Source of the DNA: Candidatus Magasanikiibacteriota bacterium
Lineage (GTDB): Bacteria > Patescibacteriota > Patescibacteriia > Magasanikbacterales > GWA2-37-8
NCBI GenBank assembly: GCA_036744835.1
Contig: DAIOHD010000001.1
Coordinates: forward strand, 464,414-528,413
DNA: 64,000 nucleotides
Direction: 5' to 3'
Shown piece after piece: positions 5,296 to 57,254 of the stretch. The notes under the pieces were generated by a model that did no database searches, had not been told where the DNA came from, and saw only the letters and a program-made list of their open reading frames with translations. Within the stretch, counting starts at the first letter, position 1, and each line of letters begins with the position of its first letter. Both the position numbers and the translations under genes were made by a program.

Positions 5296-5318
5296 ACAAT
5301 GAAATTTTTAATTAATTA

Positions 5319-24574: not shown

Positions 24575-24700
24575 TAAACTCCACCCCACCCCTCCTCTTG
24601 AATAAGAGGAGGGAGGTTTCCCTCTCTTCTATTAAGAGAGGGATTAAGGGAGAGTCAAAAAGACCCGCTTCGTCAGCGAGTCTTTTTTTGTATTGAGATT
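24575..24700. terminator. bidirectional terminator region: twin CCUCCUCUU/AAGAGGAGG hairpins plus a U-flanked hairpin between greA and the giant gene
   Basis: cctcctctt-gaat-aagaggagg; ccctctctt-ctatt-aagagaggg; aaaagaccCGCttcgtcaGCGagtcttttttt (short CGC/GCG stem, weak). Confidence 0.55.
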
Positions 24701-27700: not shown

Positions 27701-30700
27701 ATTGTCCCATAGATAGTACCCTCTGTCGGTAAATAAATAGAAAAATTCTTGATATTATTATTGGAACTAGAAACTACGGTTAATGTGGCAATAGAAGGAT
27801 CGGAAACGTTGTCATATTGATCAATGAGATAAAGATAATAAATACCGGTACCAAACGGAACATCCACAAGAGTACTTGTCCCAAATTCATCATCAGAAAC
27901 ACGCATATAGTCACCTTTTGCAAACTGATCCGCAGAAGTTAATTCCGTTGAAGTGGCGAACCAAATATGACTATTTGGCAAACCAGAAGGGTTGATGACA
28001 ATTTGTACTGTATCTCCTGTTTTTTCACTAGTAGTATCTAATGGGAATACAGTATCTTGATTATATGGCCTAACAAAAAGTATAGCATCAGAAGGTTCGG
28101 AAACTCCGGTTTCATTATTTATAACATAAAGACGATAAGCACCAGAAATATCTGGAGCTTCTATAGTAGTAGAAGTTCCAACCGCCATAGTCATAGTCGC
28201 ACTTACTGCAAATGAAGAAGTAGTATAACTGACAGAATATGGAGCAAACCAAATAAAGTTTTCCGAAGCGGTAGAGGTGGTCAAAGGGATTATAGAATAC
28301 CATTCAACAGTACTTGAAACAGTAAAAAGTTCGTTTTGATCAGTAGGGGCCGGAGAATTAATAACGTTGATTTCCCTAAGATTTGCATCTGCACAATTGC
28401 CCGCTGTATCGCAAACCTGATAAACAATATAAAAAGTACCGGTGTTATTTGTATTAACGAAATTTATATATCCCTCAGGTAACTTTGCTGACCTAACTAT
28501 GTCAGATGATACATCTCCGTCAATATCATCTATAGCCGTAGCGCCAGCATCAACATAATTACTATTTTGATAAACAGTGGTAGTAGCTTCTCCAATCAAA
28601 GAAATTACCGGAGGGGTGTTGTCTACTGTTAGGGAAGCTATAGAATGAGTGGAAACATTGCCCACTATATCTACAATATAAATATAATAAATTCCTTCGT
28701 CACTTGGAACATTCATCCCTGTATAAGTACCGTCATAGGCCTTAGTCATAGTCGCACATTCATAAAATTGTTCCTGAGTAGTTAATCCGTCCGGAGCAAA
28801 CCAAACATTATTATCGGCATTACCAGAAGAGTTTATCTCGACCCAATTACCGCCAGAGATAATTTTTGACACTGGAAATACTACATCTTGAATTTCAGCG
28901 GTAAATACCGATACGGTATATTCTTTGGTAGTAACTTCGTCTTCAGCAGTTACCGTATAAATTTGCGGATTAGTAAAATCTTTTGGCAAACCGTCATTTT
29001 CCGGATATATAGTTGTTGATAAATATTTGCTTAGTTGTATTTCAGGTGTTAATGAACCTCTATCCGTTCCTAACGGCAAGTAACAATTGATATTAGCATC
29101 GGAAATATTACATTTATAATATGTGCTTGAAACAGTAAAACCAAAATTATCAATATTGGTACTATTGCTTGATAATATTGTCCAAGTAGCCAAAGATTGA
29201 TCGGAAACATTATTGTTTTTATCAATAATGTAAAGGTGATAGGTGCCGGTGGCTATAGGCGCCCAAGCTTGTCCCCCCATACCATCATCACCTTGATAAA
29301 AATTTCTCATATTTAAGGACTCTTCAAACTGCACACTAGAGGTTAGGCCAGCTGGAGCAAACCAGACATTGCTATATGGTAATCCTACAGGATTGATATT
29401 TATTAAAATATCCCCACCTGTTCGTATCGTGGAAGTTGAATTCGGAAAAACTTCATCTTGATTATCTGGTCCAAGCACAGTTAAAATCGCATTTGATGGA
29501 TCGGAAACATTACCATATAATATATCATCAACGACATACAAACGATAATTACCAGCTTTATTTGGAGCCTTAATCACATAATCTTCTTTCCAGCCACCTT
29601 TGGTCATATAATCATCTTCCACAAATTGTTCAACAGAAGTCATACCTTCCGGCGCAAACCACGCATTACCAACCCATCCTTCTATAGGGATAGTTATAGC
29701 AACATTTTCTCCAGGCAAACTACTGGTAGAAACTGGTAAAAATTCATTCTGTTTTAGTGTTTTTGTGACAGTAACCGAAGCATCCGATGGTCCAAAAATA
29801 TCGCCGACATTATTTATAACATAAACAAAATATTCTCCAACTCGTCCGGGAGCATCCATACCGGTATTTTGCCCGTTATCAGTTTTAGTGGTTGTCACAC
29901 CATTCAAATCAAACTGTTCTGTGGAGGTTAAACCGGCTGGAGCTAACCAAACTTGATTATCAAAATTACCGGAAGAATTAATATTAATCCAGCGATTTTC
30001 CGGATAAACAGTTTTGAAAGCCGGTAAAACTAAATTTTCAATATCTTCTTCAATTTCCACAGTCACTATATATTGTTTTATATCTCCACTTTCCGCTGTA
30101 ACTGTATAAACTACTGGATTAGTGAAATCTTGTTCAACCCCCTCTTCCGGACTAACTGTAGAATTAGTTCCTTTGGGGAAACTAATACTGGGAGACAAGT
30201 GTGTAACATCAATCTCTGGATCGTTTGGAATATAAACTTTGATGGTCGGACTCGGAGTAGCGGTTTCATCAATAACCCCCAAAATATCTCCGGTAAAATA
30301 AGAAGTTGAAAAATAAAAGTAAAAATTCCGAATACTATTATTCGCACTTGGTAAAATAGTCAAAGTAGATGTAGAAGCTTCGGAAACATTTCCGTATTCA
30401 TCAATCACATAAAAATAATATGTTCCTGTGGCAATGTTAAAATTAAAATTTATTTGATCTCCCATCGGACCAAGCATCCCCAAAGAAGTGGTAGGGCCAT
30501 CTTGGATAAAATCCGAAGAAGACACCATTCCCGCTGGTGCAAACCAAAACTGCATTTTCTCGTTTACGCTTGGATCAGATACTAAAACTAAATTTACATA
30601 ATTATAAGTGCTGGTAGATTCGGTAAATATTAAATTTTGATTTGTCGGGCCGGTGACGGTCAAAGTAGCATCAGAAGGATCGGAAAGCGCCACAGCTCCT

Positions 30701-33700
30701 GGGCCCTCACCTTCTCCACCTTCAGTTGCCAATAATACAAAGAATTTATATTCCCCGGCTAAAAACGGCACAGTGGTGGTAGTTGAAGAAGCAGTATAAG
30801 GAAAAACTGCCGAAACCCTGTCAGCTGAAGTTTCTCCTTCACCTATATCGGGAAAACCTTTAAATAAAGCTTCCAAATCATCTTTGTATTCTTCCGGGGC
30901 AAAAAATCCGCCCACCATAATATATTCATCATAAATCGCTAGATTTGGTGCAAAAGACACTACTCCACCAACAGCTTGAACTATGGTAGACGAAGAAAAA
31001 AGAGCATTATTTTCCGGTTTAACTCCAAGCAAAGCTAACGAAGGGGCTGAAACTATACCTTCTTCGCTAATCACATACAAACGATAAAAACCAGGTTGAG
31101 TAGGTGCAATAATCTCAATTGCATCCCCTACCGCCATGGTCATAGTAGCGCTTTGTACAAATTCTTCTACACTTGTAAACAAGGTAGTGGACGGAGCAAA
31201 CCAAATCTCATTATTAACATCTCCCGAAGAATTTATTGACACATTAGATCCACCGTTTACAGTTGTGTAATCTGGAAAAACTTGATCTTGAAGTAACGGA
31301 CGATCTATAACATTCACTTCTCTCCAAAATACACCACTCCAATTACCAGCCTCATCCCAAGTTTCATATCCTATACTGTAAGTTCCGGTGACACTGGAAT
31401 CTATATAATCTCCGCCTCTAGCGACTTCAACATCTATAGTAGTGCTGACTCCATCAATCAAATCCCAAACAATAGTGCCAGCATCTACTTCTATCCCTGT
31501 ATTAGTCAAACTTTCACCTTGGTAAATATAAGCCGGGTTATCACCTAAAATTTCTATAGTTGGTGGGGTTGCATCAACTGTCAAAGTCGCATTTGAAGGA
31601 TCACTAACAAAGCAGGTGGCATGATCATTGTTACAATCTATATCTGGAAATTCCGGACTGGGAGTTAAAACATAAAGCTTATAATGACCCTCAAGCGAAG
31701 GAGCATATAGAAAGGAAAAAGATCCATTTTCCGCCTTAGTCATTGTTGAACCGTCTATATAAAATTCGGTAGGGTCAGTTAAACCAGCAGGGGCAAACCA
31801 AACAGAATTGGAAACATTTAATGAAGGATTGATAGATACATAGCCACTGGAACCGACTCTTACTGGTCCTGGAAAAACAAAATTTTGCACTCCAGCCTCA
31901 AAAACAATTACCGTATATTCTCTTTGGTCGCCATTTTCTGCGGTAACAGTATAAACAACGGGATTAAAAAAATCCTGCAACACATCACTTTCCGGTTCAA
32001 CTGTAGCAAAATCGGAAATTTTAAATGTCGGTGTTACTGAACTGAGATCAGAGCCAGTTGGAACATAAACATTTATATTTGTTCCGCTGGTTATCCCAAA
32101 ATAATTAACATTATCAATAGAAAGAGAAAAACTATCAATATAATTACTCGCACTTGGTAAAACCGTCAAAATTGCATCAGATGGTGAAGAAACATTTTCA
32201 TACGGATCTATAACATAAAGATGGTATGTTCCAGTAGTAATGGGCGCTCTCAATTGGGTAGATAATCCACTTTGTGCCTGTGTCATTGTTTCTCCGGCAA
32301 CAAAATCCAAAATTGTCGCCATACCCGGAGGGGCAAACCAAACTTGGTTTAATTCATTTCCGGAAGAATTAATTGAAATAGAAGGCATTTTACTTGTTTC
32401 TTTGGTCACACTGGTAGAAGCGGTAAACACATCATTTTGCAAATTCAATCCGGTCACAGTCAAAATAGCAGTAGAAGAATTTGATAAAACATAAGCTTCC
32501 GGGCCTGATTCTCCCATAATAAAAGCAGCGATATAGATATTATAATCTTGTGCAGAATAAGGCGCTTGCATCTGATAAGTTTCAGAATTATATGAGAAAG
32601 GAGGCAGTGAATCAAAAGAAACCGTATTACTAACCATCTGTCCAGAATTAAAATCCGGTAAATTTCCCATTATATAAGCAAAAGGATTGTCTGTGTTTAT
32701 AGGTACCAAAATAGCCAAAAATGTTACCCCGTTTATTATTTCACTGGAATTTCCATTTATAGGAAACATTTCTCCAGAAGCGGAGCTAGTAGACGAAGGC
32801 AGGGTTATGTTTTGATTGTAAGGTTTAACACTCAATATTGCTTTTGAAGGATCTGATACCATCCCTGTATCTTCATTTACTAAATAAACTCGGTAAAAAC
32901 CGGCGGTGCTCGGAGAAGAAATAGAAGTTGCAGTACCTGAAGCTACGGTCATGGTAGCACTAACAACGAATTGTTCGGCTTGTGTAAATTCTAAAGTTGC
33001 CGGAGCAAACCAAATAGTGTTGGTAGCTGCAGTTGAAGTCACACTGACTGATGAAGAATGATCCACTTCCAAAGATATTGAAAAAACTTCATCTTGGTCA
33101 TTTGGTTTAGGAATGCTCGGACCAAAACCGGCCATGCTGGTAAAAACTCCAAAACCATTGGTATAAGAAAGATAAAGATTTCCGGTGTTACTTACAACAT
33201 TCAATACACCGTCATAATCTGTCATCGGTGAACTGACAGGATTTATAATATCAAACACAACAGGAGTAACAGAATTGTCAAATATACCGGAACTGGCAGA
33301 TGTCTCGGTTAAGGTAATATTTTCTATATCGCTTCCCGTGCCCCCATCTGTAGTGGTAATTGTAACATAAATCGTTTCAATAGTACTTGAAATAAAATTT
33401 GCAGTTGGATCAGTGATAGAAATAATAACAGAATCCGTATCGGTATTATAAGGTGCACTGTCAAAACCGCCAGAAGCTTCTTTGATAATTTTACCCGGCA
33501 TAGCTCCTGTAGAAAAAACCCTACCATTATTAATATAATCTCCTAAAACAACTAGATCGTAATCAAAAAAATCAAAATCTCCGTTATTAGTAAAATTGGT
33601 CGTGGTTATATTTCCTGCTAATATATGATTTCCTTCATTGCTAATAGTAAGACTATAGAAATTGACATTTCCTGATCCGCCCAAAGTTCTACTAGCAGGA

Positions 33701-34179
33701 GTAAAACTCGTGCTTAAAAAAACATTTGCAACACCACCGGTAGAATCAAAAGTTCCTCCATTAACAATAAAGTCTGAATATCCGATCGTTGAAAGTTGAC
33801 CACCGAGTAAATTTACTATACCAGAATCAATATCGACAGCGCTATCAACGGTAATATTACCGGAATTTAAAGTAACAGTACCGGAATAGCCGCTTTTCAA
33901 TCTTAAATATGAAAGGTTTAAATCTCCGGAATTGTTGGCGCTGGTATTGGTAGTTCCGTAAAAAGTAAAATTTATAGGTGAACCCCAAGGAAAAGTTAAA
34001 GGATCTCCGCAAGATCCATGCCAATTATCATAATTTTGCATGTTATATGGATCTGTACTGGACGCAGAATACCATACACATTCAGCAGCTGCGTTTACTT
34101 GCACTGGCCCGCTTAATAAAAACCAAACCCCGGCTAGTAAAATAAAGACGGCCGAGATCTTCGAAAAAGATTTTATCAT
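24700..34179 (-). CDS. giant (about 3159 aa) secreted modular surface protein / adhesin-like
   Basis: Likely start MIKSFSKISAVFILLAGVWFLLSGPVQVNA-AAE, a signal peptide. Eight or more repeats of a beta module pair (W/VWFAPAGLTS..EQF...TMTKA..G.Y.LYVID..GNVS.PS.A.LTV and QDFTNPVVYTVTAE.G....Y.V.V). Three DUF5011-like Ig domains (DTTPPVI...TGTYY..Y...D..GN). Four FIVAR-like repeats. A Gly11 linker and a unique C-terminal domain. Confidence 0.8.
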   Translation of the reverse strand: MIKSFSKISAVFILLAGVWFLLSGPVQVNAAAECVWYSASSTDPYNMQNYDNWHGSCGDPLTFPWGSPINFTFYGTTNTSANNSGDLNLSYLRLKSGYSGTVTLNSGNITVDSAVDIDSGIVNLLGGQLSTIGYSDFIVNGGTFDSTGGVANVFLSTSFTPASRTLGGSGNVNFYSLTISNEGNHILAGNITTTNFTNNGDFDFFDYDLVVLGDYINNGRVFSTGAMPGKIIKEASGGFDSAPYNTDTDSVIISITDPTANFISSTIETIYVTITTTDGGTGSDIENITLTETSASSGIFDNSVTPVVFDIINPVSSPMTDYDGVLNVVSNTGNLYLSYTNGFGVFTSMAGFGPSIPKPNDQDEVFSISLEVDHSSSVSVTSTAATNTIWFAPATLEFTQAEQFVVSATMTVASGTATSISSPSTAGFYRVYLVNEDTGMVSDPSKAILSVKPYNQNITLPSSTSSASGEMFPINGNSSEIINGVTFLAILVPINTDNPFAYIMGNLPDFNSGQMVSNTVSFDSLPPFSYNSETYQMQAPYSAQDYNIYIAAFIMGESGPEAYVLSNSSTAILTVTGLNLQNDVFTASTSVTKETSKMPSISINSSGNELNQVWFAPPGMATILDFVAGETMTQAQSGLSTQLRAPITTGTYHLYVIDPYENVSSPSDAILTVLPSASNYIDSFSLSIDNVNYFGITSGTNINVYVPTGSDLSSVTPTFKISDFATVEPESDVLQDFFNPVVYTVTAENGDQREYTVIVFEAGVQNFVFPGPVRVGSSGYVSINPSLNVSNSVWFAPAGLTDPTEFYIDGSTMTKAENGSFSFLYAPSLEGHYKLYVLTPSPEFPDIDCNNDHATCFVSDPSNATLTVDATPPTIEILGDNPAYIYQGESLTNTGIEVDAGTIVWDLIDGVSTTIDVEVARGGDYIDSSVTGTYSIGYETWDEAGNWSGVFWREVNVIDRPLLQDQVFPDYTTVNGGSNVSINSSGDVNNEIWFAPSTTLFTSVEEFVQSATMTMAVGDAIEIIAPTQPGFYRLYVISEEGIVSAPSLALLGVKPENNALFSSSTIVQAVGGVVSFAPNLAIYDEYIMVGGFFAPEEYKDDLEALFKGFPDIGEGETSADRVSAVFPYTASSTTTTVPFLAGEYKFFVLLATEGGEGEGPGAVALSDPSDATLTVTGPTNQNLIFTESTSTYNYVNLVLVSDPSVNEKMQFWFAPAGMVSSSDFIQDGPTTSLGMLGPMGDQINFNFNIATGTYYFYVIDEYGNVSEASTSTLTILPSANNSIRNFYFYFSTSYFTGDILGVIDETATPSPTIKVYIPNDPEIDVTHLSPSISFPKGTNSTVSPEEGVEQDFTNPVVYTVTAESGDIKQYIVTVEIEEDIENLVLPAFKTVYPENRWININSSGNFDNQVWLAPAGLTSTEQFDLNGVTTTKTDNGQNTGMDAPGRVGEYFVYVINNVGDIFGPSDASVTVTKTLKQNEFLPVSTSSLPGENVAITIPIEGWVGNAWFAPEGMTSVEQFVEDDYMTKGGWKEDYVIKAPNKAGNYRLYVVDDILYGNVSDPSNAILTVLGPDNQDEVFPNSTSTIRTGGDILININPVGLPYSNVWFAPAGLTSSVQFEESLNMRNFYQGDDGMGGQAWAPIATGTYHLYIIDKNNNVSDQSLATWTILSSNSTNIDNFGFTVSSTYYKCNISDANINCYLPLGTDRGSLTPEIQLSKYLSTTIYPENDGLPKDFTNPQIYTVTAEDEVTTKEYTVSVFTAEIQDVVFPVSKIISGGNWVEINSSGNADNNVWFAPDGLTTQEQFYECATMTKAYDGTYTGMNVPSDEGIYYIYIVDIVGNVSTHSIASLTVDNTPPVISLIGEATTTVYQNSNYVDAGATAIDDIDGDVSSDIVRSAKLPEGYINFVNTNNTGTFYIVYQVCDTAGNCADANLREINVINSPAPTDQNELFTVSSTVEWYSIIPLTTSTASENFIWFAPYSVSYTTSSFAVSATMTMAVGTSTTIEAPDISGAYRLYVINNETGVSEPSDAILFVRPYNQDTVFPLDTTSEKTGDTVQIVINPSGLPNSHIWFATSTELTSADQFAKGDYMRVSDDEFGTSTLVDVPFGTGIYYLYLIDQYDNVSDPSIATLTVVSSSNNNIKNFSIYLPTEGTIYGTINEGITSTIDIRVSTGTVVTSLTPSIELESSLATINPESDVSQNFTNSVNYTVTAENGTQKVYIVNIAPYADMTELNAEIATATAMYNVAVTGTLPGQYTTSSKNTFLSAIQIAEGYTSTSLQSEVDGAVLNLQQAESDFIDSVIPLSDMSALDAKIAIATSTYDTAVEGDIPIVHYVSGSKAIFLPEIETAQSYTNTSSQATIDQAVIDLQDAIDNFEASKVGLSDVSALDTKIAVATSTYDAAVEGDIPLINYIAGSKTTFNIAIVHAQGVTNTSSQSTVDAEVTTLQGAIDIFEASKVPLSNTSSLDAKIATATIIYGSAVEGTLPGQYAVGSKTTLNTAIVHAQGVTNTSSQATVDAEVITLQNAIDTFEAGKVGPDTTPPVITKIGEDMKIYVGTVYTDFGATAYDAVYGTTTVDVTNPVNTNVTGTYYVVYSATDGSSNTASTTRTVWVLSVGSDEQNLTTSTQGNTTTPIILIGDNSTATSTVTVSDSITTTIYLDISATSATSTTSTVGAIPGSITVNVSTTIGIVQVTFPAGMTVTTPTSTWNGTISLPIIEATSSVSVTPDSGYSATVNTVISLGFGDTALNFDKAVRILMPGKSGYLAGYYRGTTFTKITATCSADTQVVGDALSAGGDCRINVGSDLVIWTKHFTDYIAYTQTYVGGGGGGGGGGGSTPIVVVAPVLTIPTVGRNPVVINGGALITKERAVSVSFNVANATEMVVSEKSSFIDTTWEKYAITKSFTLSSNNGRKTIYAMFRSSNGGMTNTYLSSITYSPDAVSTSTFAVGDTCSILAPGDMIKVEGKPAIYVLDNNMNYRYFSDGDVFKSWNADDNYSKYYKSITQSCFDSLSQPMEAPYHVFYRPGSEVVKYLSSDKLYVVGLNSTLYPITLSAAKTIFGDKFKAKTIGLSEWPYYVKSSESITQATVYPGMLAKIGGRNYFVDEDKTLREITALGMLENNIKTSYVRTLPSTIMSGFALGETIISKILAYTSRIGF
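26570..27500 (-). repeat. four tandem about 235-bp DNA repeats encoding FIVAR-like units inside the giant gene
   Basis: Near-identical blocks seen directly, for example ttcaaaggtatcaatagc... at 26581 and ttcaaaaatatcaatagc... at 26821. Confidence 0.6.
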
Positions 34180-34295
34180 ATATAAAAATAGATAATTATT
34201 GAAATTTTTAAATAATATCTCTACTGCAAAGTATATCATATTTTGAATTTATGGTCTAATCTTTTTTTACTCTAAAATAGGCCAAAACTGTGGAT

Positions 34296-46635: not shown

Positions 46636-46733
46636 TAAATTCTCCTTTAAAAAAACATTGAGGATGTTTAATTATACGCATTAAATAAAAACTAAGTCAA
46701 GATTTAAGGATAAATAAAAAAATAATACCCTAA

Positions 46734-46866
46734 GCTCCCGGGGTCGGCGCTTCGCTATTCGAAGTCGTCGCTACGCTCCTCTCACAAAAACCTTCGGGTT
46801 TTCGTGGACTTTCCTCAGCAAGAGAAAACTCCCGTTTTCTCCCTTTCCCGTTCGAATCCTCACCAC
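46734..46866. ncRNA. tRNA-linked structured element, copy A (3' of tRNA-Asn)
   Basis: Left end gctcccggggtcgg-CGCTTCGCT-ATTCGAA duplicates the tRNA-Asn acceptor-3'/T-stem and T-loop with a 9-nt insertion. Hairpin1 cacaaaaacc-TTCG-ggttttcgtg; CU-rich linker; hairpin2 gagaaaac-TCCC-gttttctc; cctttccc. Right end GTTCGAATCC is complementary to the left ATTCGAA. Confidence 0.55.
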
Positions 46867-46872
46867 AGAACA

Positions 46873-46908: not shown

Positions 46909-46909
46909 G

Positions 46910-46981
46910 CTCCCGGGGTCGGATTCGAACCGACGACCAATTGATTAACAGTCAACTGCGCTACCGCTGCGCTACCCGGGA
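46910..46981 (-). tRNA. tRNA-Asn (GTT)
   Basis: Manual cloverleaf: TCCCGGG TA GCGC AGCGGTA GCGC A GTTGA CTGTTAA TCAAT TGGTC GTCGG TTCGAAT CCGAC CCCGGGA G; 72 nt, no encoded CCA. Confidence 0.8.
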
Positions 46982-50062: not shown

Positions 50063-50140
50063 GATGGATACCTCCCTAAAAATAGTAATGAACGATAATT
50101 TATAATTTTACTCTTAGAAAATTGTTTTGTCAAGATAAAC

Positions 50141-50165
50141 AAAAAAACCTTTGAAAAAGGTTTTC
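50141..50165 (-). terminator. hairpin terminator 3' of element B (copy of the tRNA-Gln terminator)
   Basis: aaaaaaaccttt-gaa-aaaggtttt. Confidence 0.55.
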
Positions 50166-50175
50166 TGTTTATAAG

Positions 50176-50318
50176 TTCCGAGGCTTGGCGCTTCGCTACT
50201 CGAAGTCGTCGGTCTTCGGCCTCCTCCTTGGAAAACCTTCGGGTTTTCCAATACCTTTCCTCCTCATAGAGAAACCTCCCGGTTTCTCCCTTCCCCAGTT
50301 CGAGTCCAAGCTCAAGAC
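50176..50318. ncRNA. tRNA-linked structured element, copy B (3' of tRNA-Gln), with its own minus-strand promoter and terminator
   Basis: Left end ttccgaggcttgg-CGCTTCGCT-ACTCGAA duplicates the tRNA-Gln 3' end with the same 9-nt insertion. Hairpin1 ttggaaaacc-TTCG-ggttttccaa; linker cctttcctcctca; hairpin2 gagaaacc-TCCC-ggtttctc; right end TTCGAGTCCAAGC. Minus-strand TTGAAA-16-TATAAT at 50320..50347. Confidence 0.6.
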
Positions 50319-50319
50319 A

Positions 50320-50347
50320 ATTATATAAACAAAAAAACCTTTTTCAA
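50320..50347 (-). promoter_or_regulatory. sigma70-like promoter (TTGAAA-16-TATAAT) oriented into element B
   Basis: Minus strand reads ccTTTGAAAaaggtttttttgtttaTATAATtgtcttgag; the -35 lies in the loop of the tRNA-Gln terminator hairpin. Confidence 0.45.
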
Positions 50348-50366
50348 AGGTTTTTTTGTTTATAAG

Positions 50367-50437
50367 TTCCGAGGCTTGGACTCGAACCAAGATAGACAGC
50401 TTCAAAGGCTGTTGTCCTACCTTTAGACGACCTCGGA
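50367..50437 (-). tRNA. tRNA-Gln (TTG)
   Basis: TCCGAGG TC GTCT AAAGGTA GGAC A ACAGC CTTTGAA GCTGT CTAT CTTGG TTCGAGT CCAAG CCTCGGA A; U1-A72; 71 nt. Confidence 0.8.
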
Positions 50438-51353: not shown

Positions 51354-52034
51354 TTATAAACGATATTTTCCGGTTAATTCATCACTTACTATTTCTCCAC
51401 CTCTTAAAGTAATAACTCGACGACGTAATTCATTCACTATTTCTCGATTGTGTGTAGCCAACAAAATAGTAGTGCCGAATTCATTGATTTTTTTAAGAAT
51501 TTCTATAATTTCAACGGTATTCAAAGAGTCTAAATTACCGGTCGGTTCATCGGCAATAATAATTTTTGGCCTGTGCACCAAAGATCTGGCTATCGCCACT
51601 CTTTGTTGTTCACCTCCAGATAATTGCCTTGGATAACGATCTGTTTTATTTCCTAAACCAACTATGTCCAAAACTTGAGGTACAATTTTTTTTATTCGAT
51701 AACTTTTTTCTCCAGCTACTTCTAAAGCAAAAGAAACGTTTTCAAAAACCGTTTTCTTCGGTAAAAGTTTAAAATCTTGAAAAATAACTCCTATCTGACG
51801 TCGCAGATAAGGAATTTCAGAACTGGAGATTTTGGTAATATCCCAATCACCTATTGTTATCTTGCCTTTGGTGGGTTTTTCTTCGGCTATCAACAATCTT
51901 ACCAAAGTTGTTTTTCCCGTTCCACTTTGTCCAACAATTGAAACAAATTCGCCCGCCTCTATATGCAAAGAGATGTTACGTAAACCAACCGATTCGGTTG
52001 AATAAATTTTGGTAACTCCATCAAGTTTAATCAT
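51354..52034 (-). CDS. ftsE: cell division ATP-binding protein FtsE
   Basis: MIKLDGVTKIY start, GQSGTGKTT, LSGGEQQRVAIAR. The ORF-track start 52055 is probably too long. Confidence 0.85.
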   Translation of the reverse strand: MIKLDGVTKIYSTESVGLRNISLHIEAGEFVSIVGQSGTGKTTLVRLLIAEEKPTKGKITIGDWDITKISSSEIPYLRRQIGVIFQDFKLLPKKTVFENVSFALEVAGEKSYRIKKIVPQVLDIVGLGNKTDRYPRQLSGGEQQRVAIARSLVHRPKIIIADEPTGNLDSLNTVEIIEILKKINEFGTTILLATHNREIVNELRRRVITLRGGEIVSDELTGKYRL

Positions 52035-52189
52035 AGTGATATTATTATAACACAAAAAAAATAAACGAGCTAATCCCGCTTATTGTGGACAAAATTTTAT
52101 TTAAACCATCGTTTAGCCCGTCATCACTTGAACCCTCTATCAGAATCATCAAACTGATGTTTGTGGTTTACCTGCCCGACATGCCTTTG

Positions 52190-52262
52190 AGCCATCTCGG
52201 GGATTCGAACCCCGGACCTACGGTTTACGATACCGTTGCTCTACCAACTGAGCTAAGATGGC
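52190..52262 (-). tRNA. tRNA-Thr (CGT)
   Basis: GCCATCT TA GCTC AGTTGGTA GAGC A ACGGT ATCGTAA ACCGT AGGTC CGGGG TTCGAAT CCCCG AGATGGC T. Confidence 0.8.
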
Positions 52263-52291
52263 GTGTCTTTGGCGGGCGGGCGCGATACCAT

Positions 52292-52316
52292 CGTTCTACC
52301 ACTGAACTAAAGGGGC
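52292..52316 (-). pseudogene. truncated tRNA 5' fragment (acceptor plus D-arm only)
   Basis: GCCCCTT TA GTTC AGTGGTA GAAC G, then no anticodon or T arm; followed by GC-rich filler and then tRNA-Thr. Confidence 0.35.
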
Positions 52317-52384
52317 TTAGGCAAAGGCGGGTAGGTCTAATCTGAGCGGGATAGGAATCTCACTGCTCGTCCGCCTTAAACGGA

Positions 52385-52465
52385 CTGCGCTTTGAGAAAC
52401 CTTCGGGTTTCTCAAGAACTCTTCCTCCTCAAGAGAAAACTCCTGTTTTCTCCCTTTCCCTTCAT
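52385..52465. ncRNA. tRNA-linked structured element, copy C (core only; directly 3' of tRNA-Gly)
   Basis: Hairpin1 ttgagaaacc-TTCG-ggtttctcaa; linker ctcttcctcctca; hairpin2 gagaaaac-TCCT-gttttctc; cctttccc. Lacks the tRNA-derived end pieces. Confidence 0.5.
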
Positions 52466-52492
52466 CCTTGCTTGCCCGCCAGGCTTCGTCTG

Positions 52493-52563
52493 AGCGAGTA
52501 ACGAGAATCGAACTCGCGTCTCATGCTTGGGAAGCATGCATACTACCATTGTACTACACTCGC
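52493..52563 (-). tRNA. tRNA-Gly (CCC)
   Basis: GCGAGTG TA GTAC AATGGTA GTAT G CATGC TTCCCAA GCATG AGAC GCGAG TTCGATT CTCGT TACTCGC T. Confidence 0.75.
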
Positions 52564-52590
52564 GCAAACGAAGCCGGCGGGAGAAGGATA

Positions 52591-52615
52591 CATACTACCG
52601 ATGTACTAATCCCGC
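52591..52615 (-). pseudogene. second truncated tRNA 5' fragment, just upstream of tRNA-Gly
   Basis: GCGGGAT TA GTAC ATCGGTA GTAT G (D-arm near-identical to tRNA-Gly), then TATCCTTCTCCCGCCGG with no anticodon stem. Confidence 0.35.
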
Positions 52616-52620
52616 ATTAA

Positions 52621-52651
52621 AACCCGCCTTATTTAAGGGCGGGATGTTTTT
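52621..52651. terminator. bidirectional terminator hairpin
   Basis: aacccgcc-ttatttaag-ggcggg-atgttttt. Confidence 0.65.
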
Positions 52652-52653
52652 AT

Positions 52654-53715
52654 TTATTCTGTAACAATTGGGACTGTTTGATTATTATCGAAAGGATTGT
52701 GAATTTTAGAATAAAATTTTATCTCCACATTTTTTAAATAAGCATTCATATACTTTTCAAAAGTTGGAAGCATGAAAAGGATATGACTGGCATTAACAGA
52801 AGTTTGATTAATCCATTTATCTGTTTCATCTTTTACTCTTTCGTTTTTTATATCATTTACTTTTACAATATGATAACCAAATTCGGTTTCCACTAAATTT
52901 TCCGAAAGCTCTCCTTTTTTTAAAGCAAAGACCGCTTCTTCAAATTGAGGCACCATTTCTCCCTTGGTAAACCAACCCAATTCACCACCTGTTTGAGCCG
53001 TACCATCTTCTCCGTAGGTCATAGCCATTTCTTCAAAATTAGCTCCGTTTTTAATTTGATTCAAAACAGCTTCGGCATTATTTCTTACTTCTTCTATAGA
53101 TTCTTTATCAGTTTGTATTTTTTCATTTACTTTATTTTGAAGGACAAAAGGCCTGATAACTTTTTCTTCATAAGCTTTCATGTTCCAACCATATCTTTTG
53201 ATAAGTTCTTTTTCTAAAACATCCGCCGATTCAAACTGCTCCAAAACCTGATTCTTCAACTCTTCTACATCTTTTTTTTCAACTTTTATTTCCATTTTTT
53301 TAGCAATCTGAGAAACCATCACGTTATTGACTAAACGCCAAACAACTTGATCAGACATTTGCTCCTCGGATAACTCCATCGCTGTCCCATTGGCTTCTTC
53401 TTCATAGGCTTTCATAATTTTAATAGCTTTCATATCATCAAGATAATTGGTATAAGATACTTTCTGTCCATCTACTGATAATAAGGATAAGTGTAAAGCT
53501 TTGGCTATAAAATAAGAAAAGCCGTCCATAGCCCCTGAACGAACACGCACGATTCCCCAAACACTTCCCAAAGTTAAAATAACTGCCAAAAAACCAACAA
53601 TACTGTATAAAAATAATTTTTTATTTTTATCAACTGTTGTAACTACTGGCAAAATCTCCTTGACCTCTTGGTCTAAAACCTCTTGTTGTTCTTTATTTAA
53701 TGGTAAATTTTCCAT
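52654..53715 (-). CDS. membrane-anchored parvulin-type peptidyl-prolyl isomerase (PrsA/SurA-like)
   Basis: GELGWFTKGEMVPQFEEAVFALKKGELS...FGYHIVKV. Confidence 0.7.
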   Translation of the reverse strand: MENLPLNKEQQEVLDQEVKEILPVVTTVDKNKKLFLYSIVGFLAVILTLGSVWGIVRVRSGAMDGFSYFIAKALHLSLLSVDGQKVSYTNYLDDMKAIKIMKAYEEEANGTAMELSEEQMSDQVVWRLVNNVMVSQIAKKMEIKVEKKDVEELKNQVLEQFESADVLEKELIKRYGWNMKAYEEKVIRPFVLQNKVNEKIQTDKESIEEVRNNAEAVLNQIKNGANFEEMAMTYGEDGTAQTGGELGWFTKGEMVPQFEEAVFALKKGELSENLVETEFGYHIVKVNDIKNERVKDETDKWINQTSVNASHILFMLPTFEKYMNAYLKNVEIKFYSKIHNPFDNNQTVPIVTE

Positions 53716-56641: not shown

Positions 56642-56799
56642 ATAATATAGTAGAAATTAACTTATCCACTGTTTTTTAAATCAGGGACTTGATTTTTTTA
56701 TAAATTTAGTATATCATAATGAACGTTATTTTGTCTAATCCAAGCCAAAGACAAAATGGCGTAACTTTGCCAATAAAGGCAGAAATAATGGGCCGGTAG

Positions 56800-57080
56800 C
56801 CCCTCACCTATACCTTTATGTTTTACGTTTATCTTATAAAAAGTAAAATAGATGAGAGCACCTACATTGGCTATACAAACGATCTAAAAAGACGCTTGGT
56901 TGAACACAACAAAAGACTGAATAAGTCTACCAAGAACAAAGCGCCTTTTGAGCTCGTTTATTACGAAGCTTATAAAGAAATGGCTGACGCAAAACATAGA
57001 GAATTTAATTTAAAACGTTTTGCCAAAGCTTATCAACAGTTAAAACTACGCCTTAAGGACAGCCTAAAGGCATAGGTGAG

Positions 57081-57083
<3 letters not shown>
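56800..57083 (+). mobile_element. GIY-YIG gene cassette bounded by 12-bp perfect inverted repeats, inserted at the 5' end of tRNA-Lys with an 11-bp duplication of the tRNA 5' end
   Basis: IR-L cccctcacctat (56800..56811), IR-R ataggtgagggg (57072..57083). Direct repeat GGGCCGGTAGC at 56790..56800 and at 57081..57091, the latter being tRNA-Lys nt 1-11. Confidence 0.5.
56818..57075 (+). CDS. GIY-YIG nuclease superfamily protein (UPF0213/YhbQ-like, 85 aa)
   Basis: MFYVYLIKSKIDESTYIGYTNDLKRRLVEHNK; the stop codon lies inside IR-R. Confidence 0.8.
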   Translation: MFYVYLIKSKIDESTYIGYTNDLKRRLVEHNKRLNKSTKNKAPFELVYYEAYKEMADAKHREFNLKRFAKAYQQLKLRLKDSLKA

Positions 57084-57153
<70 letters not shown>

Positions 57154-57254
57154 CAAATCACATTATCTAAAATACAAGATAGTGTTGTTTTATAGGAAAA
57201 TAACAATTTCACCGGGATATTTTTATAAAGCTCATTAAAAAAACAGGAGGAAAA

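Follow-up and report, generated by a model that had tools for sequence, protein, structure and literature searches.

Nested tRNA-Gly and tRNA-Thr genes between a PPIase gene and ftsE in a Candidatus Magasanikiibacteriota bacterium, a probable product of successive gene replacement

In this bacterium, the interval that separates the PPIase gene from ftsE is very probably a stack of tRNA genes that were replaced one inside another. We found that the apparent tRNA fragments in the interval are halves of an older tRNA-Gly and an older tRNA-Thr gene, each split at the anticodon by a cassette carrying the same tRNA. The window, i.e. the whole stretch of DNA analysed, comprises 64,000 nt of contig DAIOHD010000001.1 (464,414-528,413), and coordinates are window positions; all features of the interval lie on the minus strand and are described from the PPIase gene towards ftsE. 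A SurA/rotamase-type PPIase is encoded on one side and FtsE/FtsX on the other. The original prediction had placed two intact tRNAs, a tRNA-Thr and a tRNA-Gly, between ftsE and the PPIase gene; ARAGORN and Rfam both agreed, and these were the only two intact tRNAs observed there. Two 25-nt 5' fragments had also been proposed. Their tRNA-like starts were present (52316 and 52615), but the pieces measured 33-34 nt and reached the anticodon. Nor are they isolated 5' stubs, since 3' remainders exist at 52459-52470 and 52343-52368 (Gly) and at 52131-52170 (Thr). Because these remainders follow the intact tRNAs, each older gene encloses an intact one and the arrangement is nested. Two further points of that reading held, the near identity of the second fragment's D arm to that of tRNA-Gly and the GC-rich filler separating each fragment from its intact tRNA. 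The cassette inserts are 112-123 nt and lack an ORF.

Syntenic Candidatus Magasanikbacteria loci, obtained from a protein search and contig look-up, served as relatives, while L001 was the sole useful relative from a PPIase scan of species-representative genomes. All loci share the gene order translin, Mur ligase, DivIC, PPIase, tRNAs, FtsE, FtsX. The simple state was observed in L191, which contains a terminator, tRNA-Gly(CCC), tRNA-Thr(CGT), a terminator hairpin and ftsE. Comparison with related loci, a check suggested at the outset, sets this simple state against the nested ones.

The terminator of the PPIase gene, located by a hairpin scan (CCCGCC..GGCGGG followed by TTTT; 52623..52643), is followed 3 nt past its T run by the start of the old tRNA-Gly, a layout also observed in L001, L186 and L191. 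The 5' part of this old tRNA-Gly(CCC) (nt 1-33; 52583..52615) contains the acceptor strand GCGGGAT, the D arm and the anticodon stem and loop as far as TTC. It was identical to the intact tRNA-Gly(CCC) of L191 at 32 of 33 positions and, by hand count, to that of L001 at 29 of 33. The Gly cassette opens with a left inverted repeat, CCCGCCGGCTTCGT (52568..52581), which pairs with 52475-52489 and forms a helix in the RNAfold minimum-energy structure. Its cargo is an intact tRNA-Gly(CCC) of another allele (52492..52563; acceptor GCGAGTG/TACTCGC; ARAGORN, Rfam 65.7 bits), and it closes with the right inverted repeat ACGAAGCCTGGCGGG (52475..52489); the helix between the two repeats has 8 uninterrupted bp, or 14 bp if one bulge is allowed. 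Compared with a 74-nt stretch of L001, the 72-nt inner tRNA-Gly had 58 identical positions, with differences chiefly in stems. The old gene resumes with CAAGGATGAAGG (52459..52470), which spans the anticodon loop (3' side), the anticodon stem (3' strand) and the variable region. Within this middle piece CAAGGAT matched the L191 tRNA-Gly at 7/7 positions and CAAGGATGA matched L001 at 9/9. The 3' piece, TATCCCGCTCA, likewise matched the L191 tRNA-Gly; the junction GAGCAGTGAGATT and the right arm CCT-ATCCCGC-TCA, a copy of an old-type tRNA-Gly 3' end (together 52343..52368), aligned to GACTCCGGTATCCCGCTCA in the same gene. RNAfold of 52335-52620 gave a cloverleaf within a cloverleaf (z = -6.3 against shuffled sequence).

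The old tRNA-Gly is damaged. Its T stem lacks the 5' strand, TGAGATT stands where TTCGATT is expected, and no ARAGORN call was obtained for the rejoined gene. One C of its anticodon is unaccounted for, and the insertion fits position 35/36 only if one C-to-T change is allowed. The junctions from the anticodon stem to the GC helix were, by eye, unpaired stretches of 4 nt and 7 nt, not the 3-4-3 pattern of a bulge-helix-bulge motif. L186 carries ACGAAGCCTGGGCGG, near-identical to the window's right Gly repeat, 1 nt past the CA end of its intact tRNA-Gly, and CAAGGATAA at the position of the old Gly piece, without the core element described below. The right repeat is thus present in L186 and the left one absent, with an old-type tRNA-Gly in the inner position, which indicates that the Gly history involves further steps (deletion or allele exchange). 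A decayed 39-nt tRNA-Gly copy was also observed upstream of the intact tRNA-Gly in L189.

The tRNA-Thr site gave an exact junction. The 5' part of an old type Q tRNA-Thr(CGT) (34 nt; 52283..52316) stops at anticodon nucleotide 35 (...AT CG) and shares 32 of 34 positions with the type Q tRNA-Thr that is intact in L186. It is followed by the left flank of the Thr cassette, CGCCCGCCCGCCAAAGACAC (52263..52282), an intact type P tRNA-Thr(CGT) as cargo (52189..52262; ARAGORN, Rfam 70.2 bits) and the right flank, AAAGGCATGTCGGGCAGG (52171..52188). The flanks pair at 7/8 positions through CCCGCCCG on the left and CGGGCAGG on the right, and the right-flank motif GCCCGACATGC (plus strand, 52174-52184) was also observed in GC-rich hairpins of L016 and L038 within tRNA-related DNA. 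Between the inner tRNA and the tRNA-Thr that stands alone in L191, 74/76 positions were identical. The 3' part of the old gene then follows (nt 36-73; 52131..52170) as TAAACCAC AAAC ATCAG-TTTGATGATT-CTGAT AGAGGGT T. The two halves rejoin exactly at CG|T, between nucleotides 35 and 36, with no loss and no duplication, and 70 of 74 positions of the rejoined gene agree with the tRNA-Thr that L186 carries intact. Its damage consists of a 3-nt T-loop insertion and two acceptor mismatches. The original prediction had considered that a complete, intron-containing tRNA might occupy the place of the fragments; ARAGORN made no such call at default settings, but the rejoined old gene was weakly recovered as tRNA-Thr(CGT) at the relaxed setting -ps80, which fits a recently inactivated gene. 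The intron mode of ARAGORN gave only spurious long-range calls in the window that reused real T arms. Reading the 3' end of the old tRNA-Thr as GAGGG-TTCAAGT..GACGGGC was wrong, and the relatives give a T arm ATCAG-TTCGATT-CTGAT and the gene end AGAGGGT.

Outside the type Q gene we observed GATTAGA followed by CCTACCCGCCTTTGCCTAA (52317..52342), the outermost tRNA-Thr 5' remnant together with the left arm of a type Q cassette. The decayed right arm of that cassette, CAAGTGATGACGGGC (52116..52130), matches CAGGCGA.GGCAGGCGGG in L186, L187, L189 and L193. In relatives a tRNA-Thr 5' fragment (..GGTAGA) joined to CCTGCCCGCCTTTGCCTAA stands directly ahead of the intact type Q tRNA-Thr; the window has lost the rest of the 3' part of the outer tRNA-Thr. 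The Thr site is composed of at least three layers, an outer type P remnant enclosing a type Q cassette, which in turn encloses a new type P cassette. The type Q cassette is intact in four relatives, and the new type P cassette inside type Q was observed in the window only. In those four (L186, L187, L189, L193) the intact type Q gene is nested within a split type P-like gene, the reverse of the nesting in the window. The outer acceptor stems were GTCATCT/AGATGAC in L193, GCCTTTT/AAAAAGC in L189 (6/7 pairs) and GCCATCT/AGATGGC in L186; these outer alleles differ yet stay complementary, as expected if the ends derive from resident genes still functional at the time of invasion. The GC hairpin in these outer type P-like genes is not cleanly at position 35/36, and it has, with a TCCAA insertion, destroyed their anticodon.

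Similar arrangements were observed at other tRNA genes. In L034 an intact tRNA-Asn lies between perfect 11-bp GC-rich repeats inside an older tRNA-Asn, and the nested gene adjoins the right arm of a still older tRNA-Asn (fold z = -6.3). Perfect GC-rich flanking repeats of at least 8 bp were found only at the window Gly and L034 Asn genes among 85 scanned tRNAs, 79 of them from distinct loci, a scan in which L006 and L007 are duplicates of the window and which missed the imperfect window Thr repeat. Insertion at 35/36 was exact in the window tRNA-Thr and in an old tRNA-Gln of L189, and within 1 nt in an old tRNA-Ser of L059. Several arms recurred: CCTGCCCGACATGC is shared by the window, L016 and L038; TCCGCC-AAA-GGCGGA lies both in the old tRNA-Gln of L189 and in the outer tRNA-Thr of the four relatives; and the right-flank motif of the Thr cassette has a single copy in the 64-kb window and occurs in 2 of 64 loci. 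A duplicated 19-nt 5' piece was observed upstream of tRNA-Leu in L016.

A third tRNA start had been proposed at 52061..52074, with the whole block bracketed by a 10-bp direct repeat, and neither proposal survived. The 14-mer in question actually lies at 52066-52079, within a conserved terminator-like hairpin (52060-52084; with its T8, 52052..52084) just upstream of the ftsE promoter. Relatives carry TTGGGATTAG, ACGATATTAG and ACGGAGTTAG at this hairpin, with compensating stem changes (L186, L189, L191), and this covarying terminator hairpin excludes the 14-mer as a relic tRNA start or left arm. The 10-bp repeat, GCGGGATTAG, occurs at 52070-52079 (the first coordinates had been 9 nt off) and 52606-52615, its downstream copy forming terminator loop and stem. 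The sequence is expected by chance 0.05 times per window, so that two copies were unexpected; we regard the repeat as a coincidence because the downstream copy belongs to the conserved terminator hairpin.

Downstream of the intact tRNA-Gly lies element C, which is a separate insertion and one copy of a family of structured elements linked to tRNA 3' ends. Its core (52369..52458) contains hairpin 1 (52433-52455), hairpin 2 (52392-52415) and hairpin 3 (52369-52385), with purine-rich linkers between them. The family core of hairpin 1 (GAGAAAAC..GTTTTCTC) and hairpin 2 (..GAAAACC-CGAA-GGTTTTC..) is present in C. Covariance model R1 matched 52384-52470 with 82 bits (E = 7e-18), compared with 104.8 bits for element A and 87.6 bits for element B, a score that C owes partly to construction because it was among the 55 sequences used to build the model; independently of the model, C fits the hairpin 1 and hairpin 2 patterns exactly. 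It had been described as fused directly to the tRNA-Gly. The model match in fact begins 21 nt downstream of that gene and the conserved hairpins about 37 nt downstream, with the right inverted repeat and the old tRNA piece lying between.

The family model gave 66 matches in the window and 57 metagenome loci. Hairpins 1 and 2 covary, with 99.4% of cells paired and 100 cells with double-sided changes against 34 +/- 5.8 in shuffles, and every wobble pair reads G-U on the tRNA-sense strand. A same-strand tRNA ends 50-79 nt upstream in 46 of 58 pattern matches (16 more distant or absent), and the upstream tRNAs span 16 amino-acid types. A typical copy lies about 50-80 nt downstream of a tRNA, with an antisense T-arm copy first and a direct copy of the tRNA 3' end last. 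Thirty-eight copies end in an 11-13/13 copy of the upstream tRNA's 3' end, and the direct repeat, which runs from the T loop through the tRNA 3' end, was observed in A, B and most loci. The junction motif of C also occurs in type I copies of the family. Element C ends in CCT-ATCCCGC-TCA and the adjacent tRNA-Gly in CGT-TACTCGC-TCA; the arm fits the old allele, so C bears the 3' end of the older tRNA-Gly and is a fossil of the earlier occupant. The arm itself may come from the split outer gene or from a former inner one. Mismatched arms of this fossil kind were also observed in L040 and L053. A terminator hairpin and an antisense T-arm copy ending in ..GAAC were not found before C, where the right inverted repeat is followed by the old Gly piece. 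That piece was considered as a decayed left arm of C and rejected, as L186 carries the stretch without the core.

Several other readings of the element were considered. Rfam 15 gave no match for copies C and A (best non-tRNA score at most 26 bits against thresholds of 40-123), and a gathering-threshold scan of five typical loci returned only tRNA and the L10 leader. A coding reading (peptide ..GKGRKREFSL..RKPEGF..) was rejected because the stems covary and the spacing of hairpins 1 and 2 changes by lengths not divisible by three (2 nt between A and B). A TnpB/omega-RNA-like reading, with the element as scaffold and its flank as guide, was unsupported, there being no such ORF nearby, as was an analogy to retroviral primer-binding sites, since the repeat runs into the gene trailer and not CCA. 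We observed nothing in support of IS200/IS605 hairpin ends. The element core pattern gave 0 hits in viral contigs.

No mobility enzyme is encoded in the Gly and Thr cassettes, and a nuclease ORF is absent from both. The 20 ORFs between 39.7 and 63.9 kb contained housekeeping families and one GIY-YIG, with no tyrosine or serine recombinase (Pfam). This 85-aa GIY-YIG ORF (56818-57075; PF01541, E = 1e-15) lies within a tRNA-Lys insert, where it sits between 10-bp inverted repeats and between an 11-nt tRNA-Lys 5' fragment and the intact tRNA-Lys; in L189 a GIY-YIG ORF lies between the old tRNA-Gln and the intact tRNA-Gln. The terminal inverted repeats of the cassettes are MITE-like (Gly 14 bp with one bulge, Thr 7/8 bp, L034 11 bp perfect), and a target-site duplication was absent at the Thr insertion. 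No group I intron or other ribozyme family was detected by Rfam in 52000-52700, where only the two tRNAs exceeded the gathering score. Cassettes in free or circular form and empty sites were not seen, and a 30-mer of the inner tRNA-Gly gave 0 hits in viral contigs. A 15-mer from the GC arm gave 120 hits in viral contigs, which we attribute to chance because all lay in DNA of about 64% GC with no tRNA nearby.

In the reading that we favour, the starting arrangement survives in L191. Each resident gene of the window was split in its anticodon by a whole tRNA gene that has this anticodon but is another allele, carried between GC-rich inverted repeats. The cassette tRNA now performs the function, and the split halves persist as decaying pseudogene pieces. 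Insertion into an essential and probably single-copy tRNA gene may be tolerated only if a working copy of the same isoacceptor is supplied, which would explain why every cassette lies in its cognate gene, and the host would thereafter depend on the cassette. Spread between lineages probably occurs by double-strand-break repair or homologous recombination with the tRNA halves as homology arms, and the breaks may come from the small GIY-YIG nucleases that adjoin tRNA genes in the same genomes. A more far-reaching version is that selfish replacement cassettes fight over tRNA genes, with insertion fixed at 35/36 and rival P and Q alleles overwriting each other in turn, and that together with the element family and GIY-YIG inserts they form an undescribed mobile-element ecology; we hold this to be possible but rather doubtful. 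If the position is fixed whatever the sequence, tRNA shape would be what is recognised, and this recognition could act on DNA hairpins, or on RNA through anticodon-loop cleavage, ligation and reverse transcription.

The nested genes might alternatively be functional, the outer tRNA being real and its "introns" removed, so that RNase P and RNase Z free the inner tRNA while the GC-rich helix keeps the halves together, to be ligated or to act as a two-piece tRNA-like RNA. The region folds far better than shuffled sequence, to the same degree as L034, the Thr insertion is exact to the nucleotide, and the outer genes of relatives retain complementary acceptor stems and intact T arms despite sequence divergence, a complementarity that could mean selection on the nested RNA. 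We nonetheless consider this improbable. The old tRNA-Thr carries its T-loop insertion and acceptor mismatches and drew no default ARAGORN call, the old tRNA-Gly is without its T-stem 5' strand and expected T loop and drew none, and in relatives the outer anticodon is destroyed. A second product would be redundant as the inner tRNA shares the anticodon, L191 and L001 do without nesting, and no group I intron or other ribozyme family was detected. Slippage or unequal recombination could also have duplicated the genes locally in tandem, with decay of the inner halves of the flanking copies and no mobile cassette; tRNA genes often occur in tandem arrays or as partial copies, and the 39-nt and 19-nt copies in L189 and L016 are of this kind. 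A tandem array would yield adjacent copies, however, not enclosing ones, and the Thr halves rejoin cleanly around DNA bounded by inverted repeats. Enclosed and enclosing genes moreover differ at compensated stem positions, the broken halves are close to the orthologues of relatives, and P and Q nest in the opposite order in four relatives, all of which make local duplication hard to sustain.

Genes for tRNAs are classic integration sites, with known sublocations in the anticodon loop and T loop, and the halves might be att-site scars left by integration and excision of an island or prophage through an integrase. This preference for the two loops favours such scars, and the repeat of the element family, from the T loop to the tRNA 3' end, has the geometry of attL and attR. 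Such integration duplicates a 3' segment and leaves no upstream 5' half, whereas here both halves enclose a whole tRNA; the lack of duplication at Thr, inserts of only 112-123 nt and the lack of an integrase among the 20 neighbouring ORFs also make scars very unlikely. An error of assembly, which had been raised as a concern, would take the form of a chimeric join of strains or tRNA paralogues. All three available short-read contigs do break inside the new tRNA-Thr: L006 and L007 cover 52660 down to 52219 and 52217, L065 covers 52245 down past ftsE, and the overlap is 27-29 nt only. These contigs come from two other runs and were 100% identical to the window on both sides (52217-52660 and 52020-52245), and five independent relatives have homologous nested arrangements, leaving an artefact scarcely credible. 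Serial replacement by cognate cassettes is the reading that we retain. The broader idea of the original prediction, repeated recombination at tRNA genes, was strengthened by the comparative loci; its details (the stubs, the third start and bracket, and the fusion of C to tRNA-Gly) were not supported.

Nested cognate tRNA cassettes and the sequence of the element were not described in the literature that we searched, but several known systems share features with them. Integrative elements at tRNA genes (prophages, islands) likewise target a loop flanked by a symmetric stem, restore the interrupted function and leave fragments of the old gene. They carry a replacement 3' segment; the cassettes here carry a whole tRNA gene of another allele, both old halves are kept, and there is no duplication and no recombinase gene. 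In AT-rich genomes, small GC-rich palindromic elements include Rickettsia palindromic elements, mitochondrial GC clusters and bacterial MITEs. As in these examples, short GC-rich hairpins, here in 34% GC DNA, enter RNA genes, and related arms recur across genomes; unlike them, some hairpins here hold a whole tRNA gene in the loop, in the cognate gene and at a fixed structural position, with no target-site duplication at Thr. The SegB enzyme of phage T4 acts in the T4 tRNA region, and the flanking tRNA alleles are preferentially inherited. SegB has been described as a homing endonuclease (PMC13096335), and the small GIY-YIG genes observed directly beside tRNA genes (window Lys, L189 Gln) resemble such free-standing enzymes. 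The Gly and Thr cassettes differ in having no nuclease gene and in lying on a bacterial chromosome rather than in a phage, and the 81-85-aa GIY-YIG proteins, putative nucleases, have no obvious DNA-binding domain.

Disrupted tRNA genes (multiple-intron, split and permuted) have been described in Archaea, where mobile DNA was proposed to fracture them and populations vary in the disrupted state (PMC3293823, PMC3218864, PMC4033280). There too the interruptions fall in loops and GC-rich complementary flanks lengthen the helix at the break, but a bulge-helix-bulge endonuclease splices the pieces to a functional tRNA. The present case is bacterial, with damaged outer genes, an insert that itself works as a tRNA with the shared anticodon, and a break at 35|36 and not at the canonical 37|38. 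"Fractured genes", in which a host gene is split by a homing endonuclease gene and rescued by split inteins (PMC2677866), also involve an essential gene split by a selfish insert and a rescue device that travels with it. Rescue there is by protein trans-splicing, whereas here a complete substitute gene is supplied and the split gene abandoned.

Small CPR genomes probably have about one gene per tRNA species, and such genes should therefore be among the most stable. Our analysis suggests instead that tRNA genes in this small-genome (CPR) bacterium have been repeatedly invaded and replaced, with as many as three successive versions of one tRNA gene stacked at the locus and lineages frozen at different stages. 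For annotation, tRNA finders return only the inner genes, the halves may be mis-scored as fragments, and short-read contigs break here. The 35|36 point and the 3'-end-copying element family offer handles on the mechanism of insertion. If the cassettes are selfish, they would be a gene-sized element that has made itself indispensable without encoding a protein, and would provide a route for the lateral replacement of core translation components.

ARAGORN and Rfam agreed on five tRNA genes in the window: tRNA-Asn (46909-46981), tRNA-Gln (50366-50437), tRNA-Thr(CGT) (52189-52262) and tRNA-Gly(CCC) (52492-52563) on the minus strand, and tRNA-Lys (57081-57154) on the plus strand. The intact Thr and Gly genes lie between a SurA_N/rotamase PPIase gene (52654-53715) and the FtsE/FtsX genes, in an interval whose features are all on the minus strand. 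Read from the PPIase terminator onward, this interval begins with the 5' piece of an old tRNA-Gly (GCGGGATTAGTACATCGGTAGTATGTATCCTTC, 52615-52583), followed by the left flank T-CCCGCCGGCTTCGT-TTGC, the intact tRNA-Gly and AG-ACGAAGCCTGGCGGG-CAAG (the tRNA-Gly call ends at 52492, and its final ..TC is left out of this string). CAAGGATGAAGG separates CAAG from element C, a GC-rich structured block reaching 52343 and ending in GAGCAGTGAGATT-CCT-ATCCCGC-TCA. After GATTAGACCTACCCGCCTTTGCCTAA come the 5' piece of an old tRNA-Thr (GCCCCTTTAGTTCAGTGGTAGAACGATGGTATCG, 52316-52283), CGCCCGCCCGCCAAAGACAC, the intact tRNA-Thr and, directly after it, AAAGGCATGTCGGGCAGG, then TAAACCACAAACATCAGTTTGATGATTCTGATAGAGGGTT (to 52131), CAAGTGATGACGGGC..., a hairpin (AATAAGCGGGATTAGCTCGTTTATT) with T8 (52084-52052) and the ftsE promoter and start. 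The two tRNA 5' fragments of the original prediction are real, since in minus-strand order each reaches the anticodon and has a partner downstream of the intact tRNA, but they measure 33 and 34 nt rather than 25 nt.

Species-representative genomes gave one useful match, contig L001 (PPIase 47% identical), with a single uninterrupted tRNA-Gly(CCC) immediately past the PPIase terminator. Its acceptor, GCGGGAT/ATCCCGC, is that of the window's 5' Gly fragment and of the end of element C, and differs from that of the window's intact tRNA-Gly (GCGAGTG/TACTCGC). The left part of L001 is Magasanikbacteria-like, while DNA of >60% GC begins just past the tRNA-Gly terminator (5120-5700) and the record carries the label Gammaproteobacteria; a chimeric or mis-binned contig is possible. 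Further relatives were found by PPIase protein search (homologues 60-72% identical, named Candidatus Magasanikbacteria wherever a name exists) and their contigs compared. The gene order is the same throughout (translin, Mur ligase, hypothetical, DivIC, PPIase, tRNAs, FtsE, FtsX), except that L187 and L188 have a different gene after the tRNAs. L191 is the simple state, consisting of the terminator, tRNA-Gly(CCC) with GCGGGAT..ATCCCGC, 5 nt, a tRNA-Thr(CGT) allele designated type P (GCCACCTTAGCTCAG...GAGATGGCTCA), the terminator hairpin and ftsE. The intact tRNA-Thr(CGT) of L186, L187, L189 and L193 is a second allele, type Q (GCCCTCTTAGTTCAGTGGTAGAACGATGGTATCGTAAACCACAAACATCAGTTCGATTCTGATAGAGGGCTCA).

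Both of the window's split genes align to these intact alleles. The old Thr pieces, joined exactly between G35 and T36 of the anticodon, match type Q of L186 at 70/74 positions, with two changes in the 5' and one in the 3' acceptor strand, and a 3-nt insertion and one change in the T loop; ARAGORN called the joined gene as tRNA-Thr(CGT) at a relaxed threshold only. The intact tRNA-Thr of the window is type P (74/76 identity to that of L191). The old Gly 5' piece is 32/33 identical to the tRNA-Gly of L191, to which the pieces CAAGGAT and TATCCCGCTCA likewise align. Joined, the Gly pieces gave no ARAGORN call; the T arm is damaged (TGAGATT in place of TTCGATT, stem shortened), and element C occupies the place of the T-stem 5' strand.

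The Thr alleles are nested in both directions. In L186, L187, L189 and L193, type Q is itself enclosed by a type P-like tRNA-Thr, whose 5' fragment ending ..GGTAGA is followed by CCTGCCCGCCTTTGCCTAA, intact type Q, CAGGCGA.GGCAGGCGGGG, GCAACGGTAT, a 15-nt GC hairpin (TCCGCCAAAGGCGGA), TAAAC-TCCAA and the type P-like 3' part (CCGTAGG...GATGGCTCA in L186). Three layers can be distinguished in the window Thr, since besides the left arm of the older type Q cassette (CCTACCCGCCTTTGCCTAA, 52335-52317) it retains a right arm, now decayed, and a vestige of the outer 5' fragment (GCTCAGATTAGA): the outer type P has been deleted for the most part, type Q is split and the inner type P is intact. We use cassette for an inserted intact tRNA with its GC-rich inverted repeats. 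The outer alleles of the four relatives are mutually different and their acceptor stems still complementary, at 7/7 pairs in L186 (GCCATCT/AGATGGC) and L193 (GTCATCT/AGATGAC) and 6/7 in L189 (GCCTTTT/AAAAAGC) and L187 (GTCAGCT/GGGTGGC, including two wobbles). The middle segment (cassette arms, type Q, GCAACGGTAT-hairpin-TAAAC-TCCAA) is common to all four. Because the outer alleles differ while the middle segment is the same, we infer that recombination carried one cassette, with a little flanking tRNA sequence, into distinct resident alleles; the alternative to such spread is that the nested RNA is under selection.

At tRNA-Gly, L186 has an intact old-type gene and then AACGAAGCCTGGGCGGACAAGCAAGGATAAAACAC, which is made up of the window's right repeat, CAAG and the old-Gly piece, with neither a left repeat nor a core element at this locus. 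Since these remnants are present in L186, cassette insertion into tRNA-Gly seems older than the split of the window lineage from L186. L186 would later have lost the left half by deletion, and the window lineage would have exchanged its inner allele and gained element C, steps to which we assign no relative order. The right arm of element C may belong to the split gene, as its original 3' end, or may have been copied from a former inner gene; under either origin it records a tRNA-Gly allele that is no longer the functional one.

Homologous nested arrangements are present in five relatives, making an assembly artefact at the locus very unlikely. Logan short-read contigs from two other runs were 100% identical to the window, with L006 and L007 spanning 52660 down to 52219/52217 and L065 spanning 52245 down through ftsE and ftsX. 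All three stop within the new tRNA-Thr with a mutual overlap of 27-29 nt, which looks like a repeat-induced graph break rather than a conflict.

A third tRNA start and a 10-bp repeat bracketing the block had also been proposed. The 10-mer GCGGGATTAG occurs at 52606-52615 and 52070-52079, the latter 9 nt from its first placement. Our scan identified a terminator-like hairpin at 52084-52060, followed by T8, and relatives carry the same hairpin at the same place ahead of the ftsE promoter (AATAATTGGGATTAGCTCAATTATT in L186, AATAAACGATATTAGCTCGTTTATT in L189, AACAAACGGAGTTAGCCCGTTTGTT in L191). Its stem has compensating pair changes (GC..GT to TT..AA and T..A to C..G) and its loop, (G)ATTAG, is conserved across the window and relatives; the supposed third start is this hairpin. 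Identity of the 10-mer with the tRNA-Gly start is seen in the window alone while the hairpin is conserved in relatives, so the bracketing is a coincidence and not a target duplication.

Element C is one of three related GC-rich blocks in the window. Element A after tRNA-Asn (46731-46867, minus strand) and B after tRNA-Gln (50172-50315, minus strand) are standard copies with a terminator, an antisense T arm, two covarying hairpins and a direct copy of the tRNA 3' end. The repeat of B runs on for about 54 nt in the trailer, and the loop of its second terminator copy is inverted (30-nt perfect inverted repeat, 50135-50164 and 50334-50363). Element C, after tRNA-Gly, is atypical: it lacks a terminator and a left arm, and it is the old tRNA-Gly allele that its right arm matches. 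A pattern spanning the two hairpins had no matches in viral contigs and 57 loci in metagenomes. A same-strand tRNA ends 50-79 nt upstream in 46/58 pattern matches (16 amino-acid types), the tRNA being much further off or absent in the remainder, and 38 copies end in an 11-13/13 copy of the upstream tRNA's last 13 nt.

The usual anatomy is tRNA, A-run, hairpin and T-run terminator; a left arm that is the reverse complement of the tRNA 3' region and always ends at G53 (..GAAC); GGGAAA, hairpin 1, a purine-rich linker, hairpin 2, a variable hairpin 3 and a junction; and a right arm copied directly from the T loop (about nt 57-60) to the tRNA end and running up to 58 nt past it. The junction is either GAGTGAGATT or GACGAC-TTCGAAT-AG-hairpin-CGC, the latter mainly with TTCGAAT or TTCAAAT T loops (window B, with TTCGAGT, is an exception). 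A covariance model detected 66 copies across the window plus the 57 loci, among them tandem arrays behind a single tRNA (L018, L045, L048) and copies with only a stub left of the upstream tRNA. The core hairpins are paired in 99.4% of cells and covary strongly (100 cells changed on both sides vs 34 +/- 5.8 in shuffles), and all their wobble pairs are G-U in the tRNA-sense strand. Repeat identity reaches 71/71 in L039 and 67/67 in L063, which we read as evidence for recent duplication. At the tRNA-Gln locus the window, L186 and L189 carry the core and L191 lacks it; the arms mismatch the present tRNA in L040 and L053, and in L027 they match each other and not the tRNA. We take the family to be insertional DNA whose arms would record the tRNA present at the time of insertion. 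No Rfam family matches the element, and its sequence was not found in the papers searched.

In the tandem pairs of L018, L045 and L048, each element closes with the 3' end of that one tRNA and a terminator. In L045 and L018 the first element combines a different or divergent core with the same CGAGTGAGA-type junction, which suggests a wider superfamily. Copies lacking a tRNA (L020, L022, two in L027, L029/L049, L033, L041, L046, L047) have, within the 45 nt before the terminator, a stub with the motif (A)GTTC.AAC.TCGT.C.. that ends in the 4-7 terminal nt of the tRNA that the right arm identifies; recurrence of the motif across genomes and tRNA types rules out random T-arm decay. L046, from the 378-kb contig ERZ795054 NODE-18 (the longest with PPIase homologue P0008), has an element A orthologue at about 2270-2700 with the same terminator as the window. 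Its tRNA-Asn site is taken by unrelated GC-richer sequence ending ..GGGCGAGC, and its right arm ends early, after TTCGAATAGCG.

Similar insertions were observed at other tRNA genes. At one site in L034, tRNA-Asn is present in three generations: the oldest survives as a right arm, the middle one is broken in the D loop, and the third, intact, is flanked by 11-bp GC-rich repeats. In L059 an older tRNA-Ser copy, with GC hairpins in its D region and its anticodon loop, lies after an intact tRNA-Ser(TGA). The old tRNA-Gln region of L189 (4381-4764) has two GC hairpins (TCCGCCAAAGGCGGA, TCCGCCTCTGGCGGA) inserted between T35 and G36 of the 5' part, then GAAGCT, an 81-aa GIY-YIG ORF and, 5 nt past it, the intact tRNA-Gln; in L191 a GIY-YIG ORF is downstream of tRNA-Gln instead. 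On the plus strand of the window, an 85-aa GIY-YIG ORF (56818-57075) lies between an 11-nt copy of the tRNA-Lys 5' end (GGGCCGGTAGC, 56790-56800) and tRNA-Lys, within 10-bp inverted repeats (CCTCACCTAT, 56802-56811; ATAGGTGAGG, 57072-57081); its stop codon is inside the right repeat, 5 nt ahead of the intact gene. Four insertions fall at anticodon position 35/36, exactly in window Thr and L189 Gln, within 1 nt in L059 Ser, and in window Gly only if one C-to-T change is assumed, while the hairpin in the relatives' outer type P-like Thr has no clean fit. Of the tRNAs scanned, window Gly and L034 Asn alone have perfect GC-rich repeats of at least 8 bp at their flanks; the window Thr repeat is imperfect. 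In L042 (about 640-1300), where ARAGORN calls no tRNA, intron-like sequence and an ORF of 102 aa containing an HNH-like motif (..CEVCGY..HHRN..CSNCHREIH) stand ahead of a tRNA-Asn 3' half that starts at the anticodon loop; an anticodon-loop intron with a homing endonuclease is a possible reading. Window positions 24700-34239 (minus strand) form a single ORF of 3179 aa.

At the nested locus a cognate tRNA with inverted-repeat flanks sits at an exact insertion point within an older gene whose outer halves decay, and states differ among relatives. Insertion into a probably single-copy tRNA gene would survive only when supplying the same isoacceptor, which would explain why cassettes always lie in the cognate gene, and the host would thereafter depend on the cassette. 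Spread would proceed by recombination with the tRNA halves as homology, with the GIY-YIG nucleases encoded next to tRNA genes as candidate sources of the initiating breaks. The 20 neighbouring ORFs include no recombinase, transposase or reverse transcriptase and are housekeeping genes (FtsX, DivIC, Mur ligase, a MurG-type glycosyltransferase, a radical-SAM/UPF0004 enzyme, a sigma-70 factor, DnaG primase).

The closest known systems are integrative elements that insert into a tRNA gene and restore it, GC-rich palindromic elements of AT-rich genomes, GIY-YIG homing of the T4 SegB type within tRNA clusters, the disrupted tRNA genes of Archaea and 'fractured genes'. To our knowledge, none combines whole cognate tRNA cargo, hairpin flanks, a fixed 35/36 insertion point and reciprocal allele overwriting. 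The original prediction, confirmed in part as an observation, had pointed to repeated recombination at tRNA genes, an interpretation that is partly supported. We rate the locus as belonging with tRNA-gene disruption by mobile DNA, as a new form of a known phenomenon, with a substantial chance that it reflects a new class of selfish elements specialised on tRNA genes.
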